Shown piece by piece: positions 18,935 through 59,580 of a stretch of DNA of 64,000 bases. Made by a program: the position numbers and the translations under genes. Numbering within the stretch: the stretch's first letter is position 1; every line of letters begins with the position of its first letter. The stretch is from Cyanidioschyzon merolae (Eukaryota): assembly GCA_000091205.1 (NCBI GenBank), contig AP006496.2; one strand, given 5' to 3'. The notes beneath the pieces are model-generated. The model ran no database searches and was not told the DNA's origin. It saw nothing but the letters and a program-made list of their open reading frames with translations.

Positions 18935-20185
18935 CACCCATGCAAGAGTACGAGTAGGGAGTTCATGGAATACGGGCGTATAGTCTAAAATTTAAATCTC
19001 TTCGAGCAGTCATCAACATCAACCTTTTGAGGGTTTTTCGCAGTGGCTGCTTCCTCTTCATCATTCTCATTTGTGGCTTTACGTACACCGGACTCTGCTT
19101 TCCCACTGGCGCCGTCATTCGCTTTCGCGGGATGTTGATGGTTGCGTTGCATTCCCGATACCGCCGATTCCGGCTGTTGTCGACGCCTCTGATACGTAGA
19201 CGGAAGTTGCGATCTACACTTCGCTTTCCATGTCGATCTTCTTTGGATACAGCCTTAGTGGGCCCTCCGCAGTGATGACACCTGGGTGTTGTCAACTGTT
19301 GCTGTAGGTGCATTGCATATCGCCCTCCGAGTGCTACCCTGTGGCGCTTGAAAGCTTGTTTGACCACTCAGTACATATCCTTGACGGGTACAGATGAGCC
19401 CATACAAATGACCTCCTTCGTTTCAGCGCCCGCTGCCGTACCCCTCGATCACGGACCTGTTCTGGGCGATCCCCTGGTCAAGTACTCTGCCGGCAGCATG
19501 CCCATGCGTATGCTGCTCCATTCGATACGGGATGTGTCATACGCGATATTGTCCATAGTGAAACAAGTACCGGGAGGAGAATCTAGTCCTGGGAGGATTT
19601 CGAGAAATTTCGATCAGTTCGCGCTCCTTTCATGCCACTCGGTGGCATACAGTTCACTGGACGCGATCGCTGCGATGACTAGAGTCCGAGTCCAAGACCC
19701 GCTTTCATGCATACAGAAGTGACGCGAGCCGCTGCGAGCGCACCCATGACAGGTACCATGGTGCTGTGGAGTGCCGTTTCGTTCATAGTTACGAAGAGAG
19801 AGAATGATTTGTCTTCCGAACGGCTTCGATTGTTTGACATGACAAGTTCAGTGAACGTTTGGCATGAGCATCCAAAGCGGCCATCAACGTAAGACGTTGA
19901 GTCTCTTTAATCGTCAATCCGGCCGATCGAAACGGTGCGCCAACGAGCTGCGTTTTAACGGAGAGATCGTGGATTTGAAGCATGCTTGCGCTATGCGTAC
20001 GCCAAACATAAGGAAATGAGAAGCATGCAGGCTTACGCGAATGAATTGGATAATGGTATTCGCTATTTCACGGGAGCTTGTTGGTCGGCATCGCGAAGCG
20101 TCATGATTCCGGTATCGTGACCACGTCCAGTGACAAGGCGTCGTTGGGGTCATTGCGGTACGATGGCCAAGCATCCTAAACCTGC
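18935..20185 (-). mobile_element. Family-2 compact TnpB-like (IS605-OrfB/Fanzor2-like) element, decayed copy E, about 1.25 kb
   Basis: Collinear nucleotide homology over the whole length, aligned by eye, to copies at 33935-35130, 40670-41950, 50878-52150 and 58390-59580. Shared 5-prime terminus (aggtttaggatgc... versus ...ttagggatgcatacg) and shared 3-prime tail (aaattttagactatacgcccg versus aaactttgcatagagtactg / aaactttagtgtataccccg). Coding remnants are split over three frames (track ORFs 19914-20174, 19789-19983, 18963-19367, all minus). Confidence 0.55.
18963..19367 (-). pseudogene. TnpB-like C-terminal remnant of copy E: zinc-ribbon plus RuvC-III-like motif, catalytic Asp lost
   Basis: The 134-aa ORF contains LTTPRCHHCGG (compare TnpB TSQxCSxCG), then SVDRNFRL-RIRG (a degenerate second CxxCG), then NRRYRECNATINIPRK. 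That last segment aligns with TnpB DRDxNAAxNI and with [12 protein letters not shown] of the family-1 Fanzor copy in this window. Confidence 0.5.
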
Positions 20186-20552
20186 TTACGTAACCTTTAG
20201 CCTTTATTGCTGTACTTCGAATCTAGATACTGTACAGCTAGAAAAACTCAAAAAAAGACCACAGGCTGGAACAGATCGTCCACTCTAGTCCTCAGTTTCA
20301 TCTGACACGGGTAGAGTGAAAATCCCATATTCACGTTCGTGCTCACGTCCTAGTCGTCTGGCTGCCGCCAGCTCCGACGCAATCCAAGAGTTGACCTCAC
20401 AAACCTTGCAGAGAAACCGCGTAAGGATCGCGGGCAGAGGAGGACGACCGCTCCCCTGCTGTCGCACGCCGTCGCGGCGTGCTCGCGCCTCGCGTCTCGT
20501 CTGTAAGCGTACTCGTTCTTACAGTGACCGACTCCGTCGAGCATCTGCCAGT

Positions 20553-20744
20553 TTAAGAGTCCGCGGAGCCACTAGTTTGCGGCCTGGAAAACACGGTCTC
20601 CGAGTCTGGCGTGCCTGCTCGAGGTCGCGGCCCCATGTTGCGGGCAAAGTTCGCGAGAAGGAAGACGGCGCCTCCGATCCCAAAGGCTGCAAGGGAGCCG
20701 CTCGTCAAGTAGAACAGCCCATCCACTATCCTGTGTGTACTCAT
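20553..20744 (-). CDS. Possible small single-pass membrane protein (63 aa)
   Basis: ORF MSTHRIVDGLFYLTSGSLAAFGIGGAVFLLANFARNMG... has one clear hydrophobic helix. No family assignment. It lies just beyond the 5-prime end of copy E. Confidence 0.2.
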   Translation of the reverse strand: MSTHRIVDGLFYLTSGSLAAFGIGGAVFLLANFARNMGPRPRAGTPDSETVFSRPQTSGSADS

Positions 20745-23249: not shown

Positions 23250-24279
23250 CACTGGTGACCGTCTCTTGTTGTAAAGGTCGACGCAAAGGCCCCGGAATGC
23301 GATGGTACACAGCTCGTGCATAGATTCTCTGTTTGATAGATCGGTTACACGGACCAAATATCCCAGGTTGAGGCTGAATATTGGCTTTCGGGAGAGCGTC
23401 CATCATGGTGCTAAATCCTACCTCCAAGTTCCATCACTCCTGCTTCCTCTCGTACGTACGAGTCATTTTATACGCTCCATCGTGCACCAAGTGCCTGCCT
23501 TGCTGCACCCGCCGTAGCGTCTATACCGCTGCAGCGGATCCAGCACAGAGACAGAACGGCTTGGTCGTACCACAAGGTTGTCGGCTCGTAGTGTCGTTTA
23601 TCCGACACGGGATCACAGGACATCATCATGCAGGGAGCCTGCAAGCTGTGCATATGGATGTACCGCCTGCTGTAGCGCGAACCGATATACTAGGCGTCCA
23701 CAGCGACCAGGGCGGCGACACGCAGACGCAGCATACCTGGCCCTAGTCCCAGCATAAGCAGCGTTTCAGACGAGTTGCTCAGATCTCACGACAGCACTAG
23801 ACGCTTGGCGCGAACACGAACCACGAGCCCGGTATTCTCGTCCGGCTTACGGGACCTTCCGTCTCTGAGATAATCTTTCGACAATACAGAGACCTTTTCC
23901 CCCTTTTAACGCGTACCGTACGCCTGGAATGAAATTTTTATCGATTGACGAGTTCGTGATTCGTTTCTGTGCTTGCCCGTCTCGTGCGTAGGTGCGTCGC
24001 GCACGCATCGGTCAAGAATCTCGATGGCAACGCTGCGAGATCGCGGCAACAGGCACGCCGTTCCAGCCACGTGGCGCTCTGTCCAGCGACGGAGGCACGT
24101 GCTGTCCGCGATCGCCGCATCCCCGGCAGATACGCGGACACGCCGCCCGCGTCCATCGTCAAATCGACGTCGAAGAAAAGCGCCCTGGACGCACGCACGA
24201 GGGGTTCTCGGATGCCGCGTATCACCCGGCCGGTGGCGCGATGCGTGACGTCGCCTCCGTCGAGCACCGGAAATTGCAA

Positions 24280-24280
<1 letters not shown>

Positions 24281-24311
<31 letters not shown>
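24281..24311. repeat. (CCTG)n tetranucleotide microsatellite, about 7-8 units
   Basis: Read directly: ctgcctgcctgcctgcctgcctgcctgcctg, about 240 bp upstream of the RWP-RK gene ATG. Confidence 0.9.
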
Positions 24312-33577: not shown

Positions 33578-33934
33578 CAGGTGGGCCCGCGAGCATGAAG
33601 CAACCCACGAATACGTATACACAAACCGCTACTCTGGAGAGCGTCTCGTTAATCAGGACGCTGCAAAGGCACCCCAGGGATCTGCCGAGTCGATGTTCGA
33701 AAAGCCAAGGATAGAGTGGATTCCTGCGAGGCCGACGTACGCCTCAGCGTGTCGGGGCGTGGCGGAGCATAGCCACGTTTGGCGCCACTACCATGGAATG
33801 AAGCCAAAATCCAGCTCCTCCATGTGTCTCAGATTCGAGGAGATCATTGAACTGTTCGTTCTGTTTCCGATTTTGTATTTTTCAGCTCTTGTTTTAGTTG
33901 TACAGCCTTGACATTCAAAGCGTGGCGATGAGAG

Positions 33935-35130
33935 GTTAGGGATGCATACGTCGTTCTAGGATTCGTGGTTGAATTTGTTTTTCGGAATGGCACAGATGAC
34001 CCTCGATCACTGGAATCGGTTACGTCATGCGAATCGTGGTGATTCGCGGAAGCTCGCAAAGAATGGTTCGTAAAATGAGCGACAAAATTAATGGATTCAT
34101 CAATACGGGCCTCTATGAGTCTTTTCTTCTTACGTGTAGCATGTTCAAATCACGCATTCTTCAAGTTTTTTACGGTCTTCCTGGTCCACGGCAACTCGCG
34201 GGTGCAGCTGCTCGCGCGTCGCTCCGGATTACCGCGGATCAAATCGTACAGTCTTGCATTGACGACCGCTGTTCAAGCCTATCCCGAAAGTTGATGGAAC
34301 TTGGCAGGTCGAATAATCGATGCTGTCGAAAAACAAATTCTCCAGTCTTTCTGAATACCCACGAAACTGCATTCCATAGCAGTAGGATACCAGTCGCGGG
34401 ATCTGCTCGCAGCGGCTTCTGTCACTTCTCTTTGCACGGTAAAGCGCCCTGGACTCGCGCTTGCGTCATCGGGGCGATCGCTTCTGGCGGAGAATGCGTC
34501 AGCGCTTTGCGTGAAGGCAGCGCTGTCGGATCGGAGTTTCTCGACTTGATTTCCATCCCGGATTTTCGTCCCGTTCATTGTTTCATCATGAACAACATCG
34601 CGTTCCGACAATCCTCCATGGAATGGAACAGCGTGCGCTTGCGTGCGCAGCTGACGGAAGACTCTCCGAGGATATCTCGCAGATAGAGCTTGTGATCCTG
34701 GGGTACAGCACCGAGCGCGGAAACGGAGTAAAGCATGTAGGGAAACCTTCTCTACCCGTCCAGGGCACGTACCGTGCAGTGAAACATGCGCTCATGTGCC
34801 AGAGAACGGCCGTTGGTAGAGAAAGTATTGCGGATACATTTGGGCACTTGACCTCCACCGAGTGTCACTGCTGCGCAGGACACACCGAGGGTACCATGCA
34901 AAGAAGAAGGCGATGGGAAAAGGATCGCAGATCTCAGCTTCCGTCCGCGCAAGCGATGCATTCCTACCAACCGAACGTGGCGAAACTGGGGCTTGATCGC
35001 TGCGATCAAGCCTCAGTTTCTGCTGCTCTGCAAGGATGAAAAAATAGCTTGAACGTTGCGGTCGTCTACAAAGTGCCAAGTTGCTTCCTGCAGGCACAGC
35101 ATCTAAAACTTTGCATAGAGTACTGACCAG
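33935..35130 (+). mobile_element. Family-2 compact TnpB-like element, decayed copy A, about 1.2 kb, in the SET-gene promoter region
   Basis: 5-prime terminus ...agaggttagggatgcatacgtcgttctaggattcg nearly identical to copy C (aggggcttaggaatgcatacgtagtttccggattctcg). Frame-b remnants ISQIELVILGYSTERGNGVK (RuvC-II-like, Glu retained), TYRAVKHAL and GHLTSTECHCCAGH (TS..C..C zinc finger). The track ORFs 34027-34686 and 34578-35039 are in different frames, so a frameshift is present. Confidence 0.55.
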
Positions 35131-37046
35131 CGCGCTGAACCCGGCAAATGTTCCTGCAGCAGCGCTCCGCGCGGAATCGATACACAGCCGCACGCCATTC
35201 GCCTGCTACTGCGCCTAACCTTCGACCAGAGCAGTGTGTCTATTGTTCGCATGCGAATCACTGCTCGCAGACGGAGAACCTGGTGCAGCATCCCGACTGG
35301 AATCGACGGTCGGACTGCGCGGTGCTGAACCTGCGGGTACAATTTTGTCCGTACATACAGTCCATGGACAAAGCGCGTGTCGTGGAGCGTGCGAGCGCCT
35401 TGACGCCGTCGCGCGCTGGCGAATCAACGTATCCGTTCGTAGGGCTCGGTTGGCCCAGTTCGAGAGTGTTCACTACACGAGGCGAATCGCAGTCTCGGAC
35501 CAGTCGCTGCGTTCGCCAACGCTCGGCCTGGGAATCCGCAGCGACACTGCGACGCCATGCTGTCGCTGGAACGGAGGATCGTGTGGGCGGACCACTATCC
35601 CCGAATCAATGCTTGGATAACGGTAAAGAGGACTGGGAGGATTTGGTGCGCCATGTAGGCTTGCTTCCCGGATGCCGATAACCATCACATCATTGGGGAT
35701 CAGAGGTTAGATTCCAAAATCCTACACCATTAGGAATCACACTCGCGGTCCTGAGCACTTGGTAACCATCCGACACTCGGGGATTCCTCGTTAGATTCAA
35801 CAATGCTCTACCATGACGTCTTCCTATTGCTGGGTTCCGCCTGCGTTCGCCCGGGCGCCTCGCCGTGCTCCAGATGATCGATCATGGCGGAGCGTGCCAG
35901 CTGGAATCATCGCGAGGTATCGTGCCAGGCCCCAATATTACCTTGTGTGTCAAAGGCGGCACCGCGACGCGCACCAGCGACAGAGCCTGCAGCAAGAGAT
36001 TACTCTACGTGAGCTTCCGAGCTACGACACCTGATTTTCGCTGCAGTGCGATGCGAACACGCACGTGCGAGTGCGGGGTGTCGGACACGTGTCCTTCATC
36101 GATCGGTGAGGCGTCTCGCGCGGTGCACGCAGTGCGCTAAGTGAGCGTTCCTGGGAGATCAGGCAGGCATAAGACACGACGCGCGTGCCGCCGCTGAAGG
36201 GAAACGCGATCCTGATCTCTGGTGTGTTGTTCAGCTGTAAAAGTTGTATTCGCGCTGGAGTCGAACAAAAATATAGTTTTCAGTTCGTTTTTGTTTCAAA
36301 CTTCAAACAAGTCTAGTCAAATGTTTTTTCGCAGTATATAACAGAAGGGTTTAAAGAGCGTTCAAGAAATATAAAAATAAAAAAACGGAAAAAGGAACGC
36401 TATGAAAAAGCAAATGCACGATCCTGGAGGCCCAGGTTCGCCGGCTGCCAGAAAAAAATAGTGCCGAGTCCAGAAGAAAAGGAAGAGAAGAAGGACCGAA
36501 AGGCGGAGGTCCTACGTCGAAGGCGGCAAGAAAGACGACTGTACGACGAGATGGTGGTGAAAACCTTTCTTCTTGGACATATCAAGGATCCGTACAGGGA
36601 AAAGTTGCGAGACGCTATCGAAAAACGTGTTGCGTCATACTCCAAGAATATTATAAAGGCGTCGTCAGGACTGATGCATTTAGCAAGGGAGATGTACGAA
36701 GACGTCGCGAACATGGAAACGGTCGAGATTCCAGACGAGTTTTTCGACAAACCTTTATTCGTCAGCTGATGCTTGGCACAGGGGAAGTGCGGAGGGAAAA
36801 TGAGCGGGTGCGCGCCCTCCACGAAAAATATCCCTTTTACAGCTTCAATGGTACTCGATACAAGGGTGACCGGGGTATTTACGGCTACGGGGCGATGAAG
36901 TACCCCACGAACCTGAAGAACCATTTGACAGAGAACTTCGAACGTTTCATGGTACGCGCCGTGTTTGCGCTGTATCCGGACATCTCTCGCAATGGAAAAT
37001 GGGCGATGATCAACGGCATCACGAGCGATCGCAAGCATGAAGATGA

Positions 37047-38618
37047 GGTCGAATTTGTCGACAAGAAAGCGCCAAACGAGAACACGAATGAAGCTTCTGT
37101 AATCCGTGCGGTTATACAAGAGCATCGTGCGGTACTGGGGCTGGCGTATCCAACAGACAAGATATCAGCGTTGAAAAAGATAAGGAAAGATACTATCGCC
37201 TCATCCTGCGATATTTCGTGTTTCTGGACCGAGAGCTCGAACGCAAGGCAGAAACGAAGCTAAGTGAAGGAAAAAATGAAGAGTGGGAGAGACGGAAGGC
37301 TGCCCTAATGGGGAAGCGCTTCGATGTGGTTCCAGTGTGCAAGATCAAGTCACATTTTGTGACTATCGACTCCGGCGTCCTCTACGGCATCATGAGGGAC
37401 ATCAGTCCGGAGTTCAGTGTCAGCAGGGAGAACTTCACCGGCGAAAACCGGGAGACGTACTTGAAGAACATCTCCAATTTCAAACGTCTGAGAGTGAACA
37501 AGCAAAAGTTGTTCACTGGGATGATCGAAACCGATGGAGTAGCCTTGTGTGTACACTATCGGCGGTTGAAGAAAGATCGGCCAGTTCCGCCCTCGGCTGC
37601 GCCCGTGACGAAGGGTGCAGAAAAGAAAGAGGCGGATCCTGAGACGCAGGAGGTGGAGGATAACGACTTTGTCGTTGAAGTGACGAAGGATGAAGATGAG
37701 AAGGAGGCGGATCCTGCGACACAGAAGGTGCAAGATAACGACCTTGTCGTTGATGCGGCGAAGGATGAAGATGAGAAGGAGGCGGATCCTGAGACGCAGG
37801 AGGTGGAGGATAACGACTTTGTCGTTTGCGCGGACCCTGGGAACACGAATATCATCACCATCGCAGCACCGAAGCGTGCGGAAGATGGTACTGATGGTAA
37901 CGTACGTCAGAAAGACATGCGAGTTTTGAGGATCTCGAGAGCGAGATACTATCGAGAATCGGGAATAATGAATGCGAGGAAGAAAATTGCTACATGGAAT
38001 GCAGGAATGAAGGATCACCTGGAAGCTTTGAGTGAGGTGACTAGCCGAAGAGCGGACTTTCAAGCTTTTCGGAAATTCATGGAAGTTTGCATTGTCCATT
38101 GGGATGCACTGTGGGAGGAGTATACCAAGGCCCGGTGGGCTCGTTTGCGTATGAATTTGTATTGTGGGAAGCAGCGGGGGTTCGCGAATTTATTCAATAA
38201 CTTGAGCGCCTTGAAGGAGGATGAAAATCAGAGGCTCGTCGTAGCATACGGAGCAGGGCGCTGGAAGACCCAAAAAGGGACTACTCCAGCTCCAACGACA
38301 AGAACATACAGGGAGTGCGCACGGCGTTTCGTTACGATACCTGTAGATGAGTTCCGAACGTCCTATGCACACCATGAACTGGGTTGTACACTTCAGAGAG
38401 TCGAGATGGAAAAGTGCCAGAGGAGCGCTGAGGAAATAGCAAAGTACGGACCGCTGACGGAGGCGCAAACGGAAAGGAGTGCGAAAGTTCGTGGACTACT
38501 CGCTTTAGTGAGTATAACTCCGGACGGGAAGAAACGTATGGAGTTTGTGAACCGAGATTTTAATGCCGCAATCAATCTACGGAAATGTGCGGTACTGGAC
38601 AAGAGACCTCCAGAGTAG
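37047..38618 (+). CDS. Intact C-terminal about 520-aa portion of the Fanzor/TnpB-like protein containing the split RuvC-like nuclease and zinc-ribbon motifs
   Basis: RuvC-I-like [17 protein letters not shown] (Asp in ADPG, about nt 37824-37845). RuvC-II region [17 protein letters not shown]...TRTYREC lacks the canonical Glu, as reported for Fanzor1 proteins with a relocated glutamate (from memory). RTS zinc-ribbon region [13 protein letters not shown]...EMEKC at about 38355. Ruv[18 protein letters not shown] at about 38550 (TnpB DRDxNAAxNI). Stop at 38616-38618. Confidence 0.7.
37626..37826 (+). repeat. 75-bp (25-aa) tandem repeat x2.7 inside the Fanzor ORF, immediately N-terminal to the RuvC-I motif
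   Basis: Protein repeat [25 protein letters not shown] / [25 protein letters not shown] / [22 protein letters not shown]. The nucleotide unit ggcggatcctgagacgcaggaggtggaggataacgactttgtcgtt... recurs with a 75-nt period. Confidence 0.8.
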
Positions 38619-38750
38619 ACAAGAGAGAACTTTATTGGACAACCTCTCAAAGTCGAACTATATGAGAAAATGTTGGAAGCAGTAGTGGGTGGCCGGTCCA
38701 AAAAGACGGGCAGGCGTCTGCACATCAGTCAGAGACGATTTGTCTAAGGC
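38560..38750 (+). ncRNA. Candidate omega-RNA / right-end region of the Fanzor element (3-prime end of ORF plus about 130-nt conserved tail)
   Basis: By analogy with TnpB/Fanzor systems, the guide-RNA scaffold overlaps the ORF 3-prime end and the transposon right end. This tail (ggacaacctctcaaagtcgaactatatgagaaaatgttggaagcag...ggtggccggtccaaaaagacgggcaggcgtctgcacatcag) is conserved in the second family-1 fragment at 54860-54990, although that copy's coding sequence is destroyed. Confidence 0.3.
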
Positions 38751-38843
38751 GCGTTCGCCGCCATTACTGTACGCCGCCGACGTCGTTCGACTCTCGAAAG
38801 GCGTTTAGTCGTGGCGACAAGTCTGCAGTTCCAGTTGCAAGCA

Positions 38844-39122
38844 ATGGGCAAACGCACACGGAAAGTGGGCATCTGCGGCAAGTACGGTACGAGGTATGGA
38901 GCGTCACTGCGAAAAACCGTGAAGAAGATGGAAATCACCCAGCACGCCAAGTACACGTGTCCGTTTTGCGCGAAGGATGCAGTGAAGCGGAAGGCAGTCG
39001 GCGTATGGGAGTGCAAGCGCTGTCGGAAGCGGATAGCTGGTGGCGCCTGGGTCCTGAACACCACCGCAGCGGCAACAGTGCGCACGACGATTCGTCGTCT
39101 GCGCGAGACCGTGGAGCAGTGA
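38844..39122 (+). CDS. RPL37A: 60S ribosomal protein L37a (eL43)
   Basis: [88 protein letters not shown] matches eL43 almost residue for residue, including the C4 zinc ribbon. ATG at 38844. The track ORF starts at an upstream GTG at 38811. Confidence 0.9.
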
Positions 39123-40669
39123 GGCTGTTCGGAGAAGGACAACGAGCACTGGGTGGCGTCTTGGATGAAAGTCGGCGAGGATGTGTCTAGTTCAAGGCGA
39201 ATGCGGCCTGTGCTGGGAGCACTAGCTAATTCGTATCGCCTACGCGCGGTTCGCTTGGTAATGAACGCCACGAGATAGCAGCGTGAGGTATGCAGCGCGT
39301 TCGACACCCAACGAGAGTGCTCCGAGTGAGCGCGCGCGACCTCTCGAGCTTGTACTGTGGGCACTTGTCGAATTGATATTCGGAGTGGCACGCCGCCACG
39401 CGCATCACTTGGAGATTACTGGTCCTGTGTGGTGATACGTTTCGCATGCCGCTTTGAGTGTAGCGTGCGCCTGTCGAGCGTCCACCGTTCGTAAGGTGTT
39501 GCGCGAGATAAGAGTCCCGCGCATTCCGCCCGCTAGAGCTTGATTATCCGATGATACATGAACGACTAGCTTGTCGAAACGTTAGCGGTAAAGAAGCGAG
39601 TATCTAGCGTACAAGACGCGTGTAGCTTTTCGCTCCTAAACACTGTACGCAGTAAAGAGCGCACGGCTTGGTGTCAGTCTCGAGCGCATGAACGACCACA
39701 GTGTTCTTCGATGGTTTGTGTAAAACTGGGCCCGCCTGAAAGGACAGCGATCTACGACACGATTAGCATCCGCGGACGCCTGGTCAGAGCGATCGGGATG
39801 CCTGTGGAAACGCGTACTTGCCGACGTTTGCAGGCGCTCACGGGCGGCCTCGGTGGCAGGGGCGAAGATCGAGCCCCTGCATCGATGATGCGTCATGCTT
39901 CTCTGCAGACGATTTAGATGCAGTCAAATGGGACTCGGCATCGAAACTGTCGTTACCTGCTGACTAGGTTGCCACAGCACGTAAGCAAACCTGCCGGCAA
40001 CCCCGGTGTGCGCCTTGCCGCGAGTGCTCACTTTTGAATGACTGCTGCGAGCCTGTGTTCGCTACAGGGCGCGACTACCCAGAGTCGCCCGGCACCAGTG
40101 CGTGTGCTCGTGACGACAGCAGCGCTGAACGCAGGTGATTGAGATTTGCTTACCTACCGGCTCGCTGAGCACATCGATTCACTGGACATGCGCGAACGAA
40201 GAGCTTTTCACGTGAAGCTACCATATCTCCCTGAGCGGATATGGCTTTCTGTCTGGACTGTGCAGAGGCAGCGGCGCCAAGTACGTTGCACTCGGATGCT
40301 CGCACGCTGCTGTTGCAACGCTGCAGGCACGCCAGAACTGCCACTACGGAGATACAGCATGCGATGCGCGGTTCTCGATACGTCCGATGATGACGCAGTT
40401 GTAGGTATCGCCCAGAACACGTGGTGGCTTTCCGAGCTCAGTCCATCGTCATGCTCCAGTGCGCATGGATTATCATGCAGCCGGGAGCCATAAAATGGAG
40501 CGCGAGACTGCGATGAACGCTTGCTACAGTGCTGAATGTGTTGCCACTGTCGCCGCACGGAAACAGCGCAAGTCGTCGTGTCGATGCTGGGGCCCACACG
40601 AAAGGCCGGATCGTAATGCGAGCGAGCGCAGCCCCGCGTTAGATGGTTAAACACATGTCAGACTAGAAT

Positions 40670-41950
40670 GGAACAGGTACACTATCTCGGCTGCGCACTC
40701 TCAAGCCTGGACATGTCGTCAAGGTCATCAATATTAGCCGTCGTGGGCTTTTTCAGCAACAGCTTCCTCTTACCCTCCATAAACTCCGGCATTCAATTCG
40801 CTGGCCTCTTGCGTCCTTCCCGTTTCGTTGTTTGCTGTCGATTGATGCTGATGCCAGCCATACTGTGCCGATATCGCTGCTTCCGTCTGGTGTCAACGTA
40901 TTTCGTGCACAGACGCAAGTTGCGATCCAAATTCGTTTGTCTGTTGCACCCACTATGTCTAGTGCACCGGTGCACCCTGCGCAGCGATGTCCATTGACTG
41001 CAGTCAGATACGCAGATATGTCCACAGCGCCTACTTCTCCAAGTGCCACGCTGGGGCGCGTGAACGCTCGCTTCGTCCATTGGTGCTCGTCGGCGACGTG
41101 TAGAGAGGGCCTAACTGTTTGCGCTTATCTGTTTTCATGCCCAATACCGTACCCTGCGCTCACGGGCCTCTTCGGGGTGTTACCCAAAGCGAACTTGGTG
41201 CACGTCGCACACGCAAGCGATCGCTCTTCCATTCTTTTGAGGATTTGTGGAAATCGATTTTGTTCATAGTAGAGAGAGTTTCGGAAGGAAATGCACGCTG
41301 ATCAACAAGATATGAAATTTTGATCCGTCTTCACTTCCTTCGTGCAGAGCGCCGATGCATGATCCACGGGAAGCGATCCCAGCGATGACTAGAGTCCCAG
41401 GCCAAGACCTTTTTCCACGCAAAAAGAAGAAACGGGAGCCACTGGGAAGTTTCCTCCTGAGAGGGATCATATTGGTGCTGTCGAATCCGGCCTCGTCGAT
41501 AGACATGAGCGGAGGCGAATTTGCCTTTGTAACGAAATCGAGTATTGCACTCGAGCAGTTCAGTGAACATTCAGCAGGAGCGCGTGAACAGAACATCAAC
41601 GGACAATGTCGAGCTTTTCCCTTTCGTATTGCTGGCCCCACACCTTGCCTCGAAACGGAAAGATCAGAACCATGAAGAATATGTGATTTGAGAATGCAAA
41701 CTGTAGGAAAACGAGAAGACTCGAAACCTATAGATATGCACTGGATTCAAAAGTCGGTCAGCGGGGGAACCCATGTTCGAGGGCGTCGCGAATCATCTCG
41801 ATTCCGGTGCCATATCGAAATCCAGCGGCAAAATCCTTGGAGGAGCCATTCCGAATAACCAAAATCCACGAAAATCCTCGAACTCCATAGGAATTCGTAA
41901 CCTCTTTTCGCCGCTCTTTTCCATCTAGAGGCTATGCATCGAAAAATCCT
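40670..41950 (-). mobile_element. Family-2 compact TnpB-like element, decayed copy B, inverted orientation, about 1.28 kb
   Basis: The reverse complement is collinear with copy A: ...gtcatcgctgggatcgcttcccgtggatcatgcatcggcgctctgcacgaagg versus A gtcatcggggcgatcgcttctggcggagaatgcgtcagcgctttgcgtgaagg; tactatgaacaaaatcgatttccacaaatcctcaaaagaatggaagagcg versus A catcatgaacaacatcgcgttccgacaatcctccatggaatggaacagcg. The 3-prime tail aatattgatgaccttgacgacatg matches E gatgttgatgactgctcgaagag. A small insertion lies near the 5-prime end (about 41900). Confidence 0.5.
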
Positions 41951-42199
41951 TCGAAACGAAATCACAAGGCGGAAACAGCGCGAGCACTACGGTATTCCCT
42001 TTTCGTTCGACGCGCCCTTAGGGAAATACCCTACCGAGCGCGCAGCGCTGCGCTGCGCACGAGCACCAACGCACCAGAAAGCCTAGAGACGCACGGCGCG
42101 TCAAAGCGCCGTATACGATGCTATGCGCATCGCTGCACCACTCGTGGCGCTTTTCTGGTCTGGAGCCGAGGCACGAGGTGCACACTTCCGACCTCGAAG

Positions 42200-49601: not shown

Positions 49602-50877
49602 AGGTCGCTCTGTATTGCTAAAATAGCCGTCCGGAGATTGTGAACCCAATGCGCTTGCACGGGAATTCAGGCCGTGTACTGGAGGACAGTGCGTGGCATC
49701 GCTTGCAAGAGTACATTGCCTCGGCTAGGGCGTCGCTAGCGCCTTGCTGGTGCATGGTACGCACGATCGGTGCAAGTGACGTACATCGGCCGACAGCAAC
49801 GTAGCCCTGAAAGTGCAGTAGTTCGCGCGTCCTGCATATAGAGCGCTAGTCGGGAACCTCTCCTGTTATCGTATCTGGGTAGCGGATCGCTCCATACGCG
49901 TGTTCGTGGAAAGCACCTCTTCGAGATTCAGCGCTTCTTTCTGACAAAGGAGATGAGTCCGTTGCTTGCAATGGATGCCCAATGCTCTATGCGAAAAATT
50001 TGCAGGGATTTGCGTATGCGCGCGCTGGCGACCCATGTCCAGCACACTCCTATGCAAGACGACTTGCGTTCGTGTTTCAGACTAGTCCTGTATCAGGTAC
50101 AAAGGAGCAGCAGCGACAGCACTGCAACGTACTTGCCTCAGCGAACGGTTGTGGTCAGCGCAGAGCCTCAGTAACGACGCAACGAGTAACGATGACGCTA
50201 GTTTCTCGCGGTGGTGATTCGTTTGCTTCAGTACGGGCATACCGTAGCGAGCGGTTCAGTCGTAGTATCTGGTGATCTTCTCGCCAAGGCCCGAACAACT
50301 TCAGTCAAAGCACGTTGACTGTAATCTCTCTGAGCAGCTGCGCTTGCGGCATTCCTCGCGTCCATGGTAGTCTCTCAGTGCGTGCAACGCTTCTGGATTG
50401 CCTGCAACCGATATAACGTAGACGCTCGCGTCCTATCACCCGCCATGACCCAGACGTCTTCATACAAACGGAATCCTATCCTCATCATTGCGCTGCTTGT
50501 GCGGTTCCCGAACGCGGGGTCGTGTATTTTCCAAGTGCTGTTTCCGATGCCACGCTTTGCATGAGCTTGAGTGCCGACGCATTACTGTGTTGCTTCTTCC
50601 TGTCCCGTTAAGCATCGCTCGGGTGAATGCGAGCAGGTGGCTTTTGACCGACGCGTGTGCATATATGCGACGTTTCATGGTATAACGCGGGTCCGTCAGG
50701 TGCGCTGCCTATGCGTCAGCGCGCGTGACAAGTCAGCGCGTACCCGATAGACGATCCAGCTTCACCTGTGCGACATAAAAATGGAACACTGAACTGCTCG
50801 CTCTGTTCAAGCACCTTGATCATTTTTCCGAACTTGCTAAGATATGCGTACGCGGGATGCAAAGCCCAGCAATAGGG

Positions 50878-52150
50878 GCTTAGGAATGCATACGTAGTTT
50901 CCGGATTCTCGATCAGGGTTTCAAAGTTGAGTCTTCGACGCTTTGCCTTTGGCATTCGATGCGTCATCAGAATGATGATGATTCTCGAAGCACGTGAACA
51001 GGGCTTTGTAAAGTAATCGACATTATTGTCCACTGCATACGTACAAGTATTCAATCTTCTCATGCCCTGATGTGGAACATGCGCAAATCACGATTGCTTC
51101 GAGTTTTCGATTTTTCTGGTTCGAGGCAAGTCGTGGGCGCAGCCATGCGTATCGTTGCATTGACGACGAAAGAAGAAACGTGATGTTGTCCCGTAATGAC
51201 TTGTTCATACGCTCATGTCGAAATTTCATGAAACATGTCACTTCATTCGATGATAGACTTTGTTAGAAATACGAATACTCTAGTCTCTGTGGTCATCGAC
51301 GAAACTGCATTCGATACCTGCACAATACTTCTCATGGGATATGCTCCCAGAGGCTCCTATGTCTTCAGAGTGCGCCGAAAATCCGCTTGGGATCGGACTT
51401 ATCCTAGTGACCGCTTCCAGTCGAGAGGGCGTCACCGGTTTGCACGAAGAAAGCCCAGACGGTTCGCCAACCCTCGACTTGATCTCTAGCCCGGATTTTC
51501 ATTCTGGTACATGTTTCACTGTCGATAAAATCTGGTTCCGTCAATGCCTTATGGAATGGGAAAGCACGGGCTCGCGCGTGCGACGGACAGGGTACTCCTC
51601 CGGGGGATCACGCAGACGACGACTATATTCGCAGTACATTGCATCGGGTGCTTCGAGCGAGCAGGGCAAAGATGGAAGACGTCTGTGCCCGTCGAGTGCA
51701 GGTACCGAGCCGTGAAGCAAGTATTGGCGTACCATAGGCCGGACCTTGCAGGAGTCATTGTGATGAACATACGTGAAAACCTGACAACAATCAAGTGTCA
51801 CCTGAACAAGAGGCACACCGAGCTGTTTACAACGACAATGAGCATCGCAAGTGAGGTGTAGATCGAAACGGCCCCCGCAATGCATAGAGTGATTTGATAA
51901 CAGATAGAATCAGGGGAATCGGGTCTTCAATGCCGTCATCGACATCCTTTGACTGCTGGCAACGGAGCTGGAGGCAAATGCAGAGACCGATGTATTCAAG
52001 GCGGAAGCGAAGCGCGACGAGAAGGAAGCATTCACGGAACCAGCCCACTTACGTTGGTATCGATGATACTGGGAGGAGGTCAGAGCTTTGGGGTGAACGC
52101 CCGAGTCAGACGACCCTTTCCATGTTACCCTACCATGGACTCAGGAAAAC
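50878..52150 (+). mobile_element. Family-2 compact TnpB-like element, decayed copy C, about 1.25 kb
   Basis: 5-prime terminus cttaggaatgcatacgtagtttccggattctcg (compare copy A). Remnants in several frames: SCIDDERRNV / RNTNTLVSVVIDETAF (N-terminal region, versus A SCIDDRCSS / KTNSPVFLNTHETAF), PVECRYRAVKQVLAYH, ENLTTIKCHLNKRHTE (zinc-finger remnant) and NRVFNAVIDIL-stop (RuvC-III-like, at about 51917-51950). Confidence 0.5.
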
Positions 52151-54149: not shown

Positions 54150-54534
54150 ACTGTGGCGAAAGTCTTCAGCGAGCCTGCTTTCTACGGCGACTCACACTTG
54201 CAGTCCTTGACTCGTGCAACAACTGGTGCGTATCAAAGTGCCAAAATGATGAGTCAAAGAAAAAGACCTTCAAACACCAGGAAACGCCTTATTGGTAAAC
54301 AGAAAAGTCTTTTACCAAGAAAGGAACGAGTGTCGAGTGGATGGACGGATTGCAGCCCCACATTGTTGCCCGAGCATGCGCCGGTGCTGCAGGCGACAGC
54401 GCCGTACCTCGGGTCGCCTCTCAGGTTCTTAGAGTCTTTCATTTGAATCGTGTTTCAATCCTCAAGTAAGTGTAATCAAGTGATTTTTCAGGGTTTGTAG
54501 CTGGAGCATTCAGAGTGTGTTCTTTTTAAAAAAT

Positions 54535-54990
54535 AAACTTACGGGAATGGAAGTGAAGGATCCTGGAGGCCGTCATCGCCGGATGCCAGAGAAAAAGGAC
54601 GAAAATTTCGATCTTCTCGCCGACCATCGAGGGAGAAGTGCAAGTGACGAAGAAGAAGAAGAACAGGGTAGGTAGATGACAAAAGATGTTTGTCCGACAG
54701 GATGATGACGAGACTGTAGTCGAATAGAGGCCACGAGTTCTGGCAATCCTTGCGATGGTGAGTTCAACCAGAGGCAATGCACGCATGGAGATCGTGAACT
54801 TTGACTTTAACGCCACCATCAATACCAGACGATGTGTGGTGCTGAAGACGACTGCTGACGATATGAGGCCATCTATGTTTGTTGGGAAACCTCTCAGATG
54901 CGAAGTGTGCTAGGAGAAACTGAAAACGGCTGCAGGCGGCCAGTCAAAAAAGGCCGGGAGGCGTCTGAGAGGGAGTATATTTCTTTACAC
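54535..54990 (+). mobile_element. Family-1 (Fanzor1-like) 3-prime-terminal fragment, degraded: C-terminal coding remnant plus conserved 3-prime tail
   Basis: The frame containing ...AILAMVSSTRGNARMEIVNFDFNATINTRRCVVL...stop (54911-54913) aligns with the intact copy [34 protein letters not shown]. An upstream in-frame stop and frame changes are present (VIAGCQRKR versus ELGCTLQRV; RMPEKKDEN versus [10 protein letters not shown]). The tail ggaaacctctcagatgcgaagtgtgctaggagaaactgaaaacgg...ggcggccagtcaaaaaaggccgggaggcgtctgagagggag matches 38640-38745 of the intact element. AT-richer than the flanks. Confidence 0.55.
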
Positions 54991-56223
54991 TCTATGGATC
55001 TACAGTTTTTTCGTTTCATTGAACACAAGGGTGCTTTTCCTTTTGATGGACAGAACGCTCAACATGACCAGGGACGCTGTATTGCGGTATGGATTCGGGT
55101 AACCGGTAATGCATCTGTCGGTCCATACCCTTGGTTCAAGTTCTGGAAGCCACTCTTCGTACTTCCCCACGACGATACTGGTCATTCCGTACGTTCCATC
55201 GTGCGACGTTTCTCCTATGAGTTTTCGCAATAGTGCTTTTACAGTGCTGTTGCCAGCGCTGAATGTCCTCTGGCTGCCGGGGTGCTCGGATCACCGTCCA
55301 GGGTGTTGTCGGTCGCACCGCGATGCCACTTGGGGAGCCACTCGGCATGCGCTTGGCGCGCTTCTGTTGTCCCTGCTTCTAAGGTCTTCGGTGACCTCGG
55401 CATCCAACGAGCGCCTTGACTACACCACGCTCTAGTCGTCGGGATGTAACCTGAAGCAGCATCGTACGCGGAAGAGGTGAGGTTTACGTCCAGTGAACCG
55501 CGAGCATTTGCATATGCCCAGGGTGGGTGCCTCGACGCATCGACCCAGCGCCATCGACACGTGTGTGCTGTGTGTGTGTGTGTAGCACACGAGGATCTAA
55601 AGCGTTAAACGAATGCCGCAGTTCTTCGCTGAAGAAGCACCACATACGCGACGTATTAAGCATGAGGCTCCCATCGACACGGGTGCTTTTGCGTTACGGT
55701 GGCACCCAGCCCGGCATAGCGTTAGCGCAACGACACTGTCGCTCCGTTTCGAAAATACGTATGGTTTGTGGCAGTGGGTGGGCCCTGAAGATATGGTGCG
55801 GGAACCGCGGACGCTCTCCCGAAGGTCGATGACAACTGCGCAGTCGGGGATCCGCGGACTCGGGCAAACCTTCCGTCCATGAAGAGAAACAGGCGCAACG
55901 CCCAATCGGGCCGCATCGTGTCTCAACCGCAAGCTTCTGGTGCACTTCAGCTGCGCCCAGTTCGCATTTGCTGGGACTCGATAGGTGTTGGTATTCGACG
56001 GGTCGTACTGAGCAACGACATCGAGTCGCCATACAGGGCACTGCCAGCGTTTTCGTAGTTGCTGTCCCATTCAGGAGTTTATACGCGGCAAAACGCGCGC
56101 TTCGGACTCGGCACCGGCAAGTCGTCGCTACCACCGGGCGTCTTGCCGAGAAACTGGGCTTGGCATCGATTTCGCTGCAGTGAGTGGCCTTTATAAAAGT
56201 ATTCTTACATAGTACTGGTGCAC

Positions 56224-56682: not shown

Positions 56683-56906
56683 AGTCTGCTTCCGGTAGCG
56701 GGAAAGCAGACCGGGAATCCTGTACTGGCTGGCACCGGTTTTTCACATACGATGGGTGCGTACTGCTCATGAACCTGCGTGGAAGCTCCAACTCGGACGG
56801 TTCACTCGGCAACGCCTATCGCAAACGCTCGACTGGAAAATTCGGCACGCTCTTGTCCGTTGCTGCGGTTGCTCCCTGAAACACACAGGCATCTCAATGA
56901 TAGCTT

Positions 56907-57608
56907 TTACGTTTGTCTGGGCTCGCTCGCTACAGTCTCTGAATCCGGAGCGGATGAGGAGTGCATGCGAACAGTGAACACCGCACTCGGTGGTGCCGGC
57001 TCGCAGACGCCCTGCACCGTACACGGGTGTCCAAGCTGGGCGAGAAAGCCCCGAATAAGGCCGGCTGGAAACACACAGTACCAGGATGGTGCTCCTACGC
57101 TCTCGGGAAGTTCCTGCACATGGCGAAGCCAGCGAAAGCTCGCATCGAAAATCACGTAAACGCCACGGTGGTTTGTTTTCAGGCTGTCCACTTGTTTGCC
57201 GAAAACAGTTCGCCACAGGTCACGACAAAGTACTTTCAAGGCATCGAGCTCTGAGACGGGGTTTCCAGCGAGGGCCCCGACCCTTGGCACTCGGGGGCCA
57301 AGTCGCTCGCCGACGTAGAAGCCGGCCTCCTCGACTCGAGCGAGCGCCAGGGTCTCGGTTGTGAGTGCTTCAGTGCCCTGGTCGTTCTCGCTTGTCGTGT
57401 GGAGGTGCTGAGGTTTTCGTGGTCGCTGCCACAGCGGTGCTGGTACCGACCCGTGGCGCACTGGTGCGTCCGGTTTTCCAAAACCCGCTGCTGAAGCAGG
57501 CAACAGCGATGCGGTATTTTCGGCAACCAGTTCCATAAGAAGAAAGTCTAGCACGGCCGAGTCGAGCAGCACTACTGGTGCGCCCTCACTCGTGGCCTGA
57601 GCGTTCAT
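56907..57608 (-). CDS. TRAPPC6: TRAPP complex Bet3-family subunit, TRAPPC6/Trs33-like
   Basis: SELDALKVLCRDLWRTVFGKQVDSLKTNHRGVYVIFDASFRWL aligns closely with human TRAPPC6A EELDVLKFLCKDLWVAVFQKQMDSLRTNHQGTYVLQDNSFPLL. Downstream GLIRGFLAQLG versus GLLRGALYTLG. N-terminal LDFLLMELV versus FEFLHTEMV. Contains a lineage-specific insertion after the first helix. Confidence 0.75.
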   Translation of the reverse strand: MNAQATSEGAPVVLLDSAVLDFLLMELVAENTASLLPASAAGFGKPDAPVRHGSVPAPLWQRPRKPQHLHTTSENDQGTEALTTETLALARVEEAGFYVGERLGPRVPRVGALAGNPVSELDALKVLCRDLWRTVFGKQVDSLKTNHRGVYVIFDASFRWLRHVQELPESVGAPSWYCVFPAGLIRGFLAQLGHPCTVQGVCEPAPPSAVFTVRMHSSSAPDSETVASEPRQT

Positions 57609-58389
57609 CCTCGCTCTTGTCGAAGAACGCAGCAGACGCGCTGGTACACACCGGGTGCCCCTGAGAGCACCTACGCCTTCAAGCGGTTACACGAAGTAAG
57701 CCAGGAGTGTGTTCGTCGGGAAAAACGCACAGACATCTGCACTGCACCCAGGTTGTCTGAGAGGTACCTGGTTGCTGCGTAGCGCCCTTTCCACAGTCAC
57801 AAGAGCGGCTTGCCGCCTGCCGTCGCGACCAGCCATAGCGGGATAGGTGGCTGCTCAGATGCATCGGTGCCGTTTCCCTGCTCGAAACAGGATCGATAAC
57901 CAGAGAAGCGACTAGCGTTCGTTCGTGATCCCTTTCGCATTCCAATAGCTCCAGACCGGTTTTAGGCCTTGCGATAGAGCTTTGATCGATCCGGCGACTT
58001 TTTCTTGTTGCCAGTCTTCTGAGGATGCTCGTGGCGGTGCTGGATGTATCGTTGCCCAAGTTGCTGTAGAGAGCGCGCACGCGCGGGTACGTGGTACCTC
58101 TAGGGGCATCGATTCGAGATGCGCTGGTGATGCCCTCGATCAGCTGTGTTTCCCTCTTGGGAAGTGCATTTGTAAAGTTGGCCGGATTCCAACGCGTTCC
58201 ACGGGCTCCTGCGTCGCGATCAAAGTGCCGTAGATACGTTGAACCTCAGCAGTAGCAATGATAACAACACGCTGCATTCGAAGAGGTGAGCAACGCACCC
58301 AGGTTTTGGATGCGCAGCACAAGTGCTCGTTCCGATTCCATGGTATCGGGGCTTTGACGAAAGCTATCCCTTGGAACAAAGAGTCTTGA

Positions 58390-59580
58390 CCCGGCGATGC
58401 CGAGATACATCCTCATTTGTCTGTGACGCAGTCCTGAAACCTTACTGGTATTCGCTGCCACCGGTTACCTACAGGCAGCGTTTGGCACTAGCAGACGCAG
58501 CCGCGGATGCACCCACCCTGCAAATATGATCTTTTTTTGACTGGCAGAACGTTTATAGGAACTGGGTGTCCGATTGTGCGATGTGGATCGGCAGCACAGA
58601 TGCAAACATCGTAGAGAGCGGCGACTTGGACGAGGCGCACTCTTCGACGAACGGTGAACAGGTGCGTGCAACAGCCATCTCACTACACTGTAAGAAAGAA
58701 ACGCACCAGGTGGAGTAACTTGGATGTAAAGAATAATGTATGGGTCTCTTTCCAAAGTCGTGAACAGCAGCCTGTTCGGAATTTTCGTGCGACTGTTTCG
58801 CTTTCCGGTCTGCGATATCCGATTTTTACTACGGGGTCTCTCCTTTCCTTCCAGCTCTGTTGCTCGCAGTCAAAGAATACTGATTTCAGCGTTAGGGTCC
58901 CGACTTCACTGCTTCGAGGTGTGGTCGACGCATATTGTCCCCAGTCGGAAGCTTCAATCTAAGCTTCAGCTGCCGTTTCGGTCCTCTGCCGTAGACAGCG
59001 ACGGTGCGCTCTTCGCATCGATAACCCTTGACTGTGCTTAGGGGTTGTTGTTCGTGCACCGCAACCACTCTTTCGACGGGGTCACCCTGGAGAATCCCGT
59101 GATCGTGGAATACTGTACCATGTGCGAAACGAAGCATGGCATCGAGACGAGCCTTGTGTACCCATCAACCGCATGCACCGAGCGATGCAGCAAGCGTTCA
59201 GGCGTCATAGACCGGACCTCGGACGCCGAGAAGCGGTGAACATACCCGACAATCTGACCATAGTCAAGTGTCACCGAGGCAAAATGCGCACCGATCAGTC
59301 TACAAATAAGATAAGAATGGCAAGCGAAGCGCACATTCCAACGACCACCTATGCATACCCTGTGTTGACAACAGCCAGAATTAGGGAAATCGCGACTTTC
59401 ATGCTATCATCAGCATCTTTTTCTGCGTATAACAATGCTGGGGCCAAGGAGAAACCTGCGAAATGAAAGCCGGAGTTAAGACAAAGGACAAGGGAGCATT
59501 CGCAGAACTTGCCCACAAATGCTTGTGCTGGTTACACGTAGAAAAGACCCAAACTTTAGTGTATACCCCGAGTTAGCCAG
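58390..59580 (+). mobile_element. Family-2 compact TnpB-like element, decayed copy D, about 1.2 kb
   Basis: Collinear with copies A, C and E. Examples: ggagtaacttggatgtaaagaataatgtatgggtctctttccaaagtcg versus A ggaacttggcaggtcgaataatcgatgctgtcgaaaaacaaattctcc; zinc-finger remnant DNLTIVKCHRGKMRTDQ; RuvC-III-like NRDFHAIISI with Asp retained (about 59385-59415). 3-prime tail aaagacccaaactttagtgtataccccgag versus E aagagatttaaattttagactatacgcccg. Confidence 0.5.

Follow-up and report, generated by a model that had tools for sequence, protein, structure and literature searches.

The stretch of DNA studied here (the window, 64,000 nucleotides) is part of chromosome 14 of Cyanidioschyzon merolae 10D, and of ten of its long open reading frames (ORFs), compared by exact sequence, eight correspond to annotated C. 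merolae proteins, including gamma-tubulin, a FancD2-like protein, a folate transporter, CMN316C, CMN317C and CMN319C. The window also contains five copies of a repeat, here designated family 2, which account for approximately 9.8% of its length, and sequence related to the known Fanzor1 element CMe-1A, which accounts for approximately another 7.1%. Our comparisons revealed that family 2 is a two-gene chimera, in which part of a DDE_3 transposase gene is joined to the 3' end of a Fanzor1 gene, and indicated that it is probably the remnant of an extinct, non-autonomous transposon.

It has been reported that 0.7% of the C. merolae genome consists of transposons, including eight class II elements whose similarity to bacterial transposases is weak, and that a 3.2-kb repeat related to WSV486 of white spot syndrome virus is present in 253 copies (PMC1955436). 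This 3.2-kb repeat was recognized by Bao and Jurka as the Fanzor1 element CMe-1A (PMC3627910). A preliminary description of the present DNA regarded five copies of a TnpB-derived element in one window as an unusual density for a eukaryote, a view that does not hold in a species with 150-253 copies of one Fanzor1 repeat on record (PMC3627910, PMC1955436). Family 2 is not described in the literature that we searched, Repbase lying outside that search, and its best-preserved copies may be among the eight class II elements of Nozaki et al. The species is cited for its 0.7% of transposons plus one 5% repeat, and much of its intergenic DNA may consist of very old transposon relics.

The copies, located by nhmmer with a profile built from eight copies, and their parts are as follows (TIR, terminal inverted repeat; P0002, P0004 and P0007 are homologous proteins introduced below).

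18936..20312, minus strand: copy A, full-length (profile positions 3-1400), 78% identical to the consensus
20288..20312, minus strand: 5' TIR of copy A (ACCCGTGTCAGATGAAACTGAGGA)
19530..20237, minus strand: DDE_3-derived segment of copy A, from the ATG to …AY(H)D(K)TS, with 2 stops and frameshifts
18985..19521, minus strand: Fanzor1 C-terminus segment of copy A (VIEGYGSG, TTPRCHHCGG, NRRYRECNATINI, stop), from tblastn with P0002, P0004 and P0007
18936..18956, minus strand: 3' TIR of copy A (…CTCGTACTCTTGCATGGGT)
33820..35045, plus strand: copy B, 3'-truncated (profile positions 4-1221), the last ~180 nt including the 3' TIR being gone
33898..34614, plus strand: DDE_3-derived segment of copy B
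34623..35045, plus strand: Fanzor1-derived segment of copy B (IELVILGYSTERGNG, TSTECHCCAGH and a decayed RuvC-III, NWGLIAAIKP)
40651..42017, minus strand: copy C, full-length
41241..41939, minus strand: DDE_3-derived segment of copy C (SIDEAGF, VIAGIAS, MNKIDFHKS)
40700..41232, minus strand: Fanzor1-derived segment of copy C
40651..40671, minus strand: 3' TIR of copy C, the reverse complement of which, TGTCAGACTAGAATGGAACA, matches the 5' consensus at 17/20 positions (p~0.003)
50764..52140, plus strand: copy D, full-length
50764..50788, plus strand: 5' TIR of copy D (ACCTGTGCGACATAAAAATGGAACA)
50842..51547, plus strand: DDE_3-derived segment of copy D (VIDETAFD, LILVTAS, VDKIWFRQ)
51556..52091, plus strand: Fanzor1-derived segment of copy D (LTTIKCH…, NRVFNAVIDI)
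52120..52140, plus strand: 3' TIR of copy D (…CCATGTTACCCTACCATGGA)
59074..59612, plus strand: direct 3' fragment of copy E (profile positions 844-1388), comprising the Fanzor part and the 3' TIR
58685..59091, minus strand: inverted 3' fragment of copy E (profile positions 977-1384)

That these intervals form one dispersed repeat family, as first described, was borne out: the five are collinear in a MAFFT alignment, and single copies compared with single copies by nhmmer, without any profile, gave E values of 3e-85 to 8e-101 among copies A-D. Other elements of that description needed revision. The pairwise identity between copies, given as 60-75%, was measured as 54-58%; the identity of individual copies to the family consensus is 71-78%. 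The full-length element is approximately 1377 bp long, and not all five copies reach that length, because copy B lacks its last ~180 nt and copy E consists of two 3' fragments. The sequence quoted as the 5' terminus (ttagggatgcatacgt) is internal, encoding R-A-Y-G-F-I-R of the transposase ~125 nt inside the true 5' end, and the sequence quoted as the 3' terminus covers the stop codon of the Fanzor part (…KRSKL*), with the true 3' end lying ~50 nt farther out; for copy A, however, the low coordinate that was given, 18935, does agree with the true 3' end (18936). The protein motifs quoted are all present in the translations, with some of them assigned to the wrong copies: IELVILG and TSTECHCCAGH belong to the copy at 33.9 kb and NRDFHAIISI to the copy at 58 kb.

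Two copies have individual features. In copy B, positions 34069-34683 are still open as one frame of 205 codons, which is recorded as protein P0113. Copy E is without the transposase-derived part, the 5' 60% of the element being entirely absent. Its two fragments are arranged head-to-head, with the 3' TIR facing outward on both sides and the two alignments overlapping by ~18 nt at 59074-59091; the reverse complement of its 3' TIR, CCATGTCAGACAAGACCGAAACA, matches at 16/23 positions. Copy E is a foldback-like rearranged derivative, which could in principle still have been mobilisable.

To identify the 5' part of family 2, we built an alignment, A3, from twelve stop-free in-frame pieces taken directly from the window coordinates, and its profile was searched with full HMMER against 1.84 billion representative proteins. 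A total of 360 proteins were found at E<=1e-3. The short matches are ORF fragments of other decayed copies, and approximately a dozen are intact proteins of 304-342 aa with E values of 1e-9 to 1e-20. In nine of the 10 scanned matches of 300-342 aa, Pfam detected DDE_3 at E 1e-23 to 1e-29, and most of these nine also showed weaker, sub-threshold helix-turn-helix (HTH) matches, for example to HTH_Tnp_Tc3_2 (Tc3-type). The tenth, P0143, has no Pfam match and is a read-through ORF that passes from a CMe-1 C-terminus into the transposase part of family 2. In addition, an 8-copy consensus of 1403 nt was constructed from four window copies and four paralogous copies on hot-spring metagenome contigs, the latter found by looking up the contigs of paralogous ORFs. 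In this consensus, nt 87-791 match in the DDE frame, which is a clean ORF of 260 codons with both HTH domains. It begins with MYSLEIRSAAIRAYGFIRSFR…STPCRWN, as the intact proteins do, and aligns with the DDE_3 protein profile from position 1 (MYSLE…) to approximately 228-252 of 316, with a score of 229 bits.

The first catalytic Asp was found in 'IDETAF' and the second in 'MDNIAFHKS', 77 residues apart, as in P0170; in copy A, MNETAL corresponds to the first and MDNIAY to the second, with VIAAIAS between them. The segment 'VIGAIAS/VIAAIAS', previously taken for RuvC-I, is not RuvC-I and aligns to the DDE_3 beta-strand 'sviaaisssG'. The suggestion that the catalytic Asp of RuvC-I was already absent from the progenitor is consequently unsupported, because it depended on that assignment. 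The third catalytic residue (…PPYSPxxNPIE…) is missing: the DDE frame ends in 'FHKSSIEWNSVRLRVQRTEYSPRGSPRRSP*' with no NPIE, and the region where this residue would lie is Fanzor-derived DNA read out of frame.

The raw 5-copy consensus has an open frame of ~250 codons with INETAFD…VIAAIAS…FTMDNIAFRKS, in which Pfam gave only sub-threshold matches to DDE_3 (E 0.0074) and HTH_Tnp_Tc3_2 (E 0.11). Pairwise blastp of the transposase half with the transposase of the Fanzor1-bearing element PUl-1 showed a similarity of only 20% at E 0.14, which is not significant alone. Searches of solved structures with the consensus and the profile of the N-part returned chance matches only, and the N-part has no similarity to the viral Fanzor contigs. 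The DDE_3 assignment is therefore based on the A3 profile search and the 8-copy consensus, since the raw consensus and blastp would not suffice alone. On these sequence comparisons, the 5' 55% of family 2 is assigned to a Tc1/mariner/IS630-type DDE_3 transposase gene.

One base out of frame with the transposase, the raw consensus has a 3' reading with PVIVGYG…CHRC… and a RuvC-III motif. Pfam recognized PF07282 (Cas12f1-like TNB/OrfB_Zn_ribbon) in the consensus with 31.4 bits (cutoff 26.3, E 2.2e-7). When the joined consensus was searched against 5.8 billion proteins, only eight matches were obtained, with E values of 1e-27 to 1e-32, and all eight were confined to the C-terminal 21-44% of the query. 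The earlier statement that the repeat is TnpB-derived is thus correct for its 3' third, while the 5' 55% belongs to the transposase. The Fanzor-type homologues P0001-P0007 are proteins of 376-551 aa with an xTDG motif and a RuvC-I of the form G(I/L)DPGRVNLY. In tblastn searches they matched the window copies only from their own residue ~199-300 onward, indicating that the repeats hold just the last third of a Fanzor gene.

The -1 frame of the 8-copy consensus is stop-free and reads MEQRALARAADRVLAEGITQKKPVIVGYGTGRGNGGGH…VPVKGMYRAMKQAFTRHR…EHLTTAKCHRC…DRNFRLCMKC…RuvC-III…KRSKL*, and it aligns with positions 291-393 and 442-514 of the 525 positions of the Fanzor profile (139 and 61 bits). The part retained comprises the last ~175 residues, covering the RuvC-II region, the CxxC…CxxC zinc ribbon (KCHRC…RLCMKC) and a RuvC-III (R-D-x-N-A-A-x-N-I) aligned to the RNRDFNAAI that is invariant in the homologues. 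The catalytic Asp motif of RuvC-I (G-I/L-D-P-G) is absent, the Fanzor profile aligning only from RuvC-II onward. As for WED/REC, profile positions 1-290 found no match in any frame of the consensus, the sole upstream match having 5.6 bits and lying in the DDE frame. The proposal of a compact, full-length TnpB of 380-400 aa is therefore not supported. It was also observed that the Fanzor frame upstream of the junction with the transposase part (consensus nt ~320-790) is stop-free for ~150 codons, overlapping the transposase frame; this stretch has no similarity to Fanzor N-terminal regions and is probably an effect of codon composition.

The subtype was examined by comparison with the Fanzor1 and Fanzor2 reference proteins of the supplement of Bao and Jurka. 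The Fanzor part matched the Fanzor1 references CMe-1, CRe-1 and CVu-1 at E 3e-7 to 1e-2 (3e-7 to 3e-6 for CRe-1 and CMe-1), and its homologues matched them at E 1e-5 to 1e-13, while the comparison of the Fanzor part with the Fanzor2 proteins ACa-1 and ACa-2 gave E>0.1. In the consensus, PVIVGYGTGRG fits the '[VI][VI]x[YFW]Gx[GW]' RuvC-II region that replaces the canonical Glu in Fanzor1, as far as a C-terminal fragment can be judged. There is no IS607-type serine recombinase, the gene upstream of the Fanzor part being the DDE transposase. By these comparisons the Fanzor part groups with Fanzor1, and not with Fanzor2 as previously proposed.

The two halves meet at one point throughout the family. 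High-confidence alignment to DDE_3 ends at AFHKS (nt ~791) and high-confidence alignment to Fanzor starts at MEQRALA (nt ~800), with the two frames offset by one base (-1) in copies A-D. The alignment is continuous across the junction in all 12-13 copies examined, and the same tail follows the junction in the independent database ORFs P0115, P0119, P0121, P0137, P0139 and P0149. The presence of the junction in every copy examined indicates that it already existed in the progenitor that amplified, and since no copy has the two halves in one frame, a single TnpB-like protein was never encoded.

In the copies compared, homology starts and stops at fixed points, and the flanks have no similarity beyond the TIRs. 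The 5' end, ACCCGTGTCAGATGAAAATGGAACA, corresponds to the reverse-complemented 3' end, A.CCATGT.AGA..A.AATGGAACA. Within the first 25 nt of the consensus ends, 19 positions agree, 1 is a mismatch and 5 are ambiguous, whereas only 3 of the next 24 agree; the 3' ends of the single copies L028 and L024 also fit this repeat. The element is therefore bounded by TIRs of ~25 bp, with an 86-nt leader on the left, and its right end lies ~50 nt beyond the Fanzor stop codon. The base adjoining the element is A on the 5' side or T on the 3' side in most copies, and the outer base is not conserved.

All copies are decayed. Every copy carries stops and indels, as the preliminary description had noted, with 1-5 stops per half. 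Mismatches occur at rates of 0.25, 0.23 and 0.27 at the first, second and third codon positions of the DDE half (chi-square p 0.05), and of 0.27, 0.28 and 0.28 at those of the Fanzor half (p 0.86). The equal substitution at the three codon positions illustrates that neutral decay followed one old burst of amplification, and nothing in the copies suggests a living gene or a present function.

The explanation that best accommodates these observations, and one that we consider quite probable, is that family 2 is an extinct, ~1.38-kb, non-autonomous cut-and-paste transposon of the Tc1/mariner/IS630 type, produced by internal deletion of a composite element that carried a mariner transposase and a Fanzor1 protein. 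The parent would have contained the transposase gene followed by the Fanzor1 gene on the same strand. From it, we infer, a deletion removed the C-terminus of the transposase, the spacer and the first ~55-65% of Fanzor1 and kept both TIRs. Internal deletions of such elements typically arise by abortive gap repair. The product would have consisted of the ~86-nt leader and the first ~235 transposase codons, with two HTH domains and the first two catalytic Asp, joined a few codons past 'FHKS' and one base out of frame to the last ~175 Fanzor1 codons, which include the 'VIVGYGTG' RuvC-II region, the 'EHLTT-KCHRC…RLCMKC' zinc ribbon and RuvC-III, followed by ~50 nt and the right TIR. Such a product has neither a working transposase, as the third catalytic residue is missing, nor a working Fanzor, as RuvC-I and WED/REC are missing, and it must have moved in trans. 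A full-length transposase recognizing the shared TIRs presumably mobilised the derivative in one ancient burst, after which the autonomous partner would have been lost and the copies would have decayed neutrally to ~27% from the consensus.

Composite loci with the order postulated for the parent were recovered when IMG/VR was scanned with profiles of each half, a scan in which relatives of both halves were found in giant-virus metagenome-assembled genomes (MAGs). In the viral contig L013, DDE_3 (8004-8894) is followed on the same strand by Fanzor1 from 8941 to the end of the contig, and in the viral contig L011 a C-terminal fragment of DDE_3 (84-283) is followed by Fanzor1 (360-2054). L013 also carries 'GTCAGAccaATGAAttcTGGAACAC' ~70 nt upstream of its transposase ATG, a sequence that resembles the family-2 TIR (p~0.04). 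No similarity was found between the TIRs of family 2 and the ends of CMe-1A or L011.

Several points weigh against the explanation proposed for family 2. First, the hidden Markov model alignment of the DDE frame continues to 'YSPRGSP' (compared with PPYSPdaNP), overlapping the start of the Fanzor frame, and the exact breakpoint is uncertain by ~20 codons. Second, the TIR is seen at the level of the consensus, and is not significant when the ends are compared within single copies. Third, a TA target-site duplication (TSD) defines Tc1/mariner insertions, and the dinucleotide TA is present in only 2 of 13 flanks, leaving the TSD unconfirmed. Fourth, the copies counted are those of the 64-kb window and of metagenome contigs rather than of the whole genome. 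Fifth, the resemblance between the L013 sequence and the family-2 TIR is of marginal significance only. Finally, we found no complete parent in which both halves are close relatives of those of family 2: the Fanzor1 of L013 and L011 is CMe-1-like, whereas the family-2 Fanzor part is closest to the P0001-P0007 type, and the contigs with the P0002/P0003 type have no adjacent DDE_3.

The last of these points is also what would be expected if the chimera had arisen by recombination or template switching between a mariner-type transposon and a Fanzor1 element with its own right end: the closest Fanzor relatives do not adjoin a DDE_3 gene in their own contigs, and the composite loci hold a different Fanzor1 lineage. 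In addition, Bao and Jurka noted frequent chimerism among Fanzor elements, which may have one end in common with unrelated elements (PMC3627910). However, the two ends of family 2 form a matching inverted repeat of ~25 bp, which would be expected if a single mariner-type element supplied both of them, but not if the right end were that of an unrelated Fanzor element; CMe-1A, one such element, is without TIRs (PMC3627910). Because a transposase followed by Fanzor on one strand is moreover an attested architecture, we consider recombination unlikely, if still the strongest competitor of the deletion.

A more specific role for the retained 3' part can also be imagined. In TnpB/Fanzor systems, the 3' region of the gene and the right end encode the guide (omega) RNA. 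Family 2 might accordingly have been a parasite reduced to a guide RNA plus ends, mobilised by the parent transposase, retained or homed by the parent Fanzor1 in trans, and carried into Cyanidiales by a giant virus; it would then be the eukaryotic counterpart of the bacterial non-autonomous IS200/605 derivatives that bear omega RNA. We obtained no positive evidence that the Fanzor 3' part kept in family 2 once contained an omega-RNA gene. Folding of this region of the consensus was indistinguishable from that of shuffled sequences (z -0.4 to -1.55), with neutral decay having removed any covariation signal, and Rfam had no match in the window. This scenario appears improbable.

The possibility of a functional host gene family, in the form of a truncated transposase domesticated as a DNA-binding protein or repressor, or of a transposase-Fanzor protein fused by frameshifting, was also considered. 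It is favoured by the clean 260-codon ORF of the consensus with both HTH domains, by the 205-codon open frame of copy B and by the transcription of C. merolae repeats reported by Nozaki et al. (PMC1955436). Against it, substitution is equal at all codon positions, stops and frameshifts occur in both halves of every copy, and no intact member was found among the 1.84 billion representative proteins, in which the best matches were fragments; the data require no slippery site, and no search for one was made. Such a role seems very unlikely.

Still less can be said for the element originally proposed, a decayed full-length compact TnpB/Fanzor2 of 380-400 aa that had lost the Asp of RuvC-I. Its C-terminal RuvC-II-like, zinc ribbon and RuvC-III motifs are real, and the overall length fits a small TnpB, the homologue P0004 being only 376 aa long. 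The 5' 700 nt, however, match DDE_3 at 229 bits from the initiator Met and do not match the Fanzor profile, the Fanzor homologues align only from residue ~199/300 with the two parts in different frames in all copies, and the Fanzor1 type, the lack of an IS607-type serine recombinase and the inverted-repeat termini all differ from what was proposed. The DDE_3 profile search, the Pfam scan and the consensus alignment together refute this model, to which we give next to no credence; a repeat with TnpB-like motifs at one end is not by that fact a TnpB throughout. Segmental duplication of one original locus, which the presence of five copies within 40 kb might suggest, is just as implausible an account of their spread, because homology ends at the same two points in all copies, forming an inverted repeat between unrelated flanks, and because the copies lie on both strands and further ones occur on other contigs in unrelated contexts.

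The other repeat of the window, CMe-1A, was mapped with its 3169-bp consensus by blastn and nhmmer, which matched 36133-38803, 23334-24004, 54428-55238 and small fragments and showed no DNA similarity to any copy of family 2. The match at 36133-38803 (plus strand) is a 5'-truncated copy covering approximately 648-3169 of the consensus with 84-89% identity, and lies inside the family-2 interval. It contains an open Fanzor1 ORF of 466 codons (37218-38618), preceded by the open pieces 36461-36769 and 36769-37263, and its G+C content (GC) of ~0.50 and strong purine skew are unlike those of the flanks. At 37600-37840 (plus strand), a segment of ~78 nt (consensus 2118-2196) is repeated three times in tandem and in frame, compared with once in the published consensus. 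Approximately 8 nt past the 3' end of this copy begins an ORF (38811-39122, plus strand) that resembles ribosomal protein L37a by eye (CPFC…CKRC). The match at 23334-24004 (plus strand) contains the 5' ~650 nt of CMe-1A on their own, a segment that corresponds to the separate element TE-N2_CMe of Bao and Jurka, at 77% identity. Short fragments of the TE-N2_CMe segment are present at 16498-16676 (plus strand), 35570-35709 (minus strand), 55049-55238 (plus strand) and 55696-55861 (minus strand). Finally, 54428-54971 (plus strand) is an internally deleted derivative in which consensus 784-1068 is joined to 2834-3087, showing that the other Fanzor family took the same deletion route.

Copies of family 2 and of CMe-1A/TE-N2 tend to adjoin one another, both in the window (33.8-42.0 kb and 54.4-59.6 kb) and at the additional loci L021, L022 and L023; in three of the first four additional loci, the family-2 copy has a CMe-1A or TE-N2 segment no more than ~1 kb away. 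This adjacency may simply be due to the small number of intergenic sites that tolerate insertions in such a compact genome.

Relatives on viral and virus-like contigs provided further observations. Giant viruses have been reported in association with Cyanidiales mats (PMC11003980). The contigs L001-L007, which carry the closest relatives of the family-2 Fanzor part (P0002 and P0003), have dense short ORFs and encode an Rpb2-type RNA polymerase subunit, an RNA ligase and an S74 peptidase. Their GC of 0.49-0.56 is near that of Cyanidiales, compared with 0.19-0.27 in AT-rich marine giant-virus MAGs. In P0003, an unrelated low-complexity N-terminus is followed by a Fanzor C-terminus that starts (…GVLQKRPVIIGYG) almost where the family-2 fragment starts. 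L011 is the IMG/VR uncultivated virus genome (UViG) 3300028372_000028, classed as viral, with a GC of 0.54. Its complete Fanzor1 of 564 aa is 38% identical to CMe-1 (E 3.5e-105) and lies directly downstream of the C-terminus of the DDE_3 transposase. The transposon class of CMe-1 was left open by Bao and Jurka (PMC3627910), and the arrangement in L011 suggests a mariner-type element as a former carrier of the CMe-1 lineage too. Giant-virus-like contigs, some of them Cyanidiales-like in GC, hold the nearest relatives of both halves of family 2, which hints at virus-host traffic of mariner-Fanzor1 elements in acidic hot springs.

Family 2 is an ordinary transposon fossil with a mildly interesting ancestry. 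It is the second Fanzor1-derived lineage in C. merolae besides CMe-1A, and the first clearly classifiable mariner-superfamily element with defined TIRs in this genome. Among Fanzor elements of the same host, it is comparable to CMe-1A and TE-N2_CMe (~150-253 copies, 3.2 kb), which are likewise Fanzor1-derived, old, multicopy and intergenic (PMC3627910, PMC1955436). The two differ, however, in that their Fanzor parts are only ~24% identical, no DDE_3 remnant was found when one was sought in CMe-1A, CMe-1A has no TIRs (PMC3627910) and an intact Fanzor1 ORF survives in some CMe-1A copies. Family 2 is also the more diverged, at 71-78% identity to its consensus compared with the ~80% reported for CMe-1A and the 84-89% of the window copy; it is separate from and older than CMe-1A.

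The proteins P0001-P0007, from virus-like contigs of hot-spring and other metagenomes, are the closest to the Fanzor half, with up to 58% identity in the best segment (E 1e-32), and have 'GYGTGRGNGGGH…VPVKAMYRA…WEHLTTKKCHRC' and the RuvC-III motif in common with it. Unlike family 2, they are complete (376-551 aa) and retain the xTDG motif and the RuvC-I G(I/L)DPGRVNLY. The architecture expected of the parent is that of PUl-1 and PUl-2 of Pythium ultimum and PGv-1 of the Phaeocystis globosa virus, in which a transposase is followed by Fanzor1 between TIRs of 24-29 bp with a TA TSD (PMC3627910). As in these elements, a DDE_3/mariner-type transposase lies upstream of Fanzor1 on the same strand in family 2, with TIRs as boundaries and links to giant viruses, and its transposase half is collinear with the PUl-1 transposase. 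In contrast to them, family 2 is only 1.38 kb long, its remnants are fused out of frame, its transposase gene has lost its end and its Fanzor gene the first ~55-65%, with no spacer left between them, and it is multicopy and dead.

Internal deletion of Tc1/mariner elements is a general route to derivatives resembling miniature inverted-repeat transposable elements. Family 2 resembles the non-autonomous elements formed in this way, in that both TIRs were kept, transposase function was lost, and the copies appear to have been amplified in trans and then decayed. It differs from an ordinary deleted Tc1/mariner element in that its deletion spans two genes, leaving a relic in which a DDE transposase and a TnpB-family nuclease seem to be combined.

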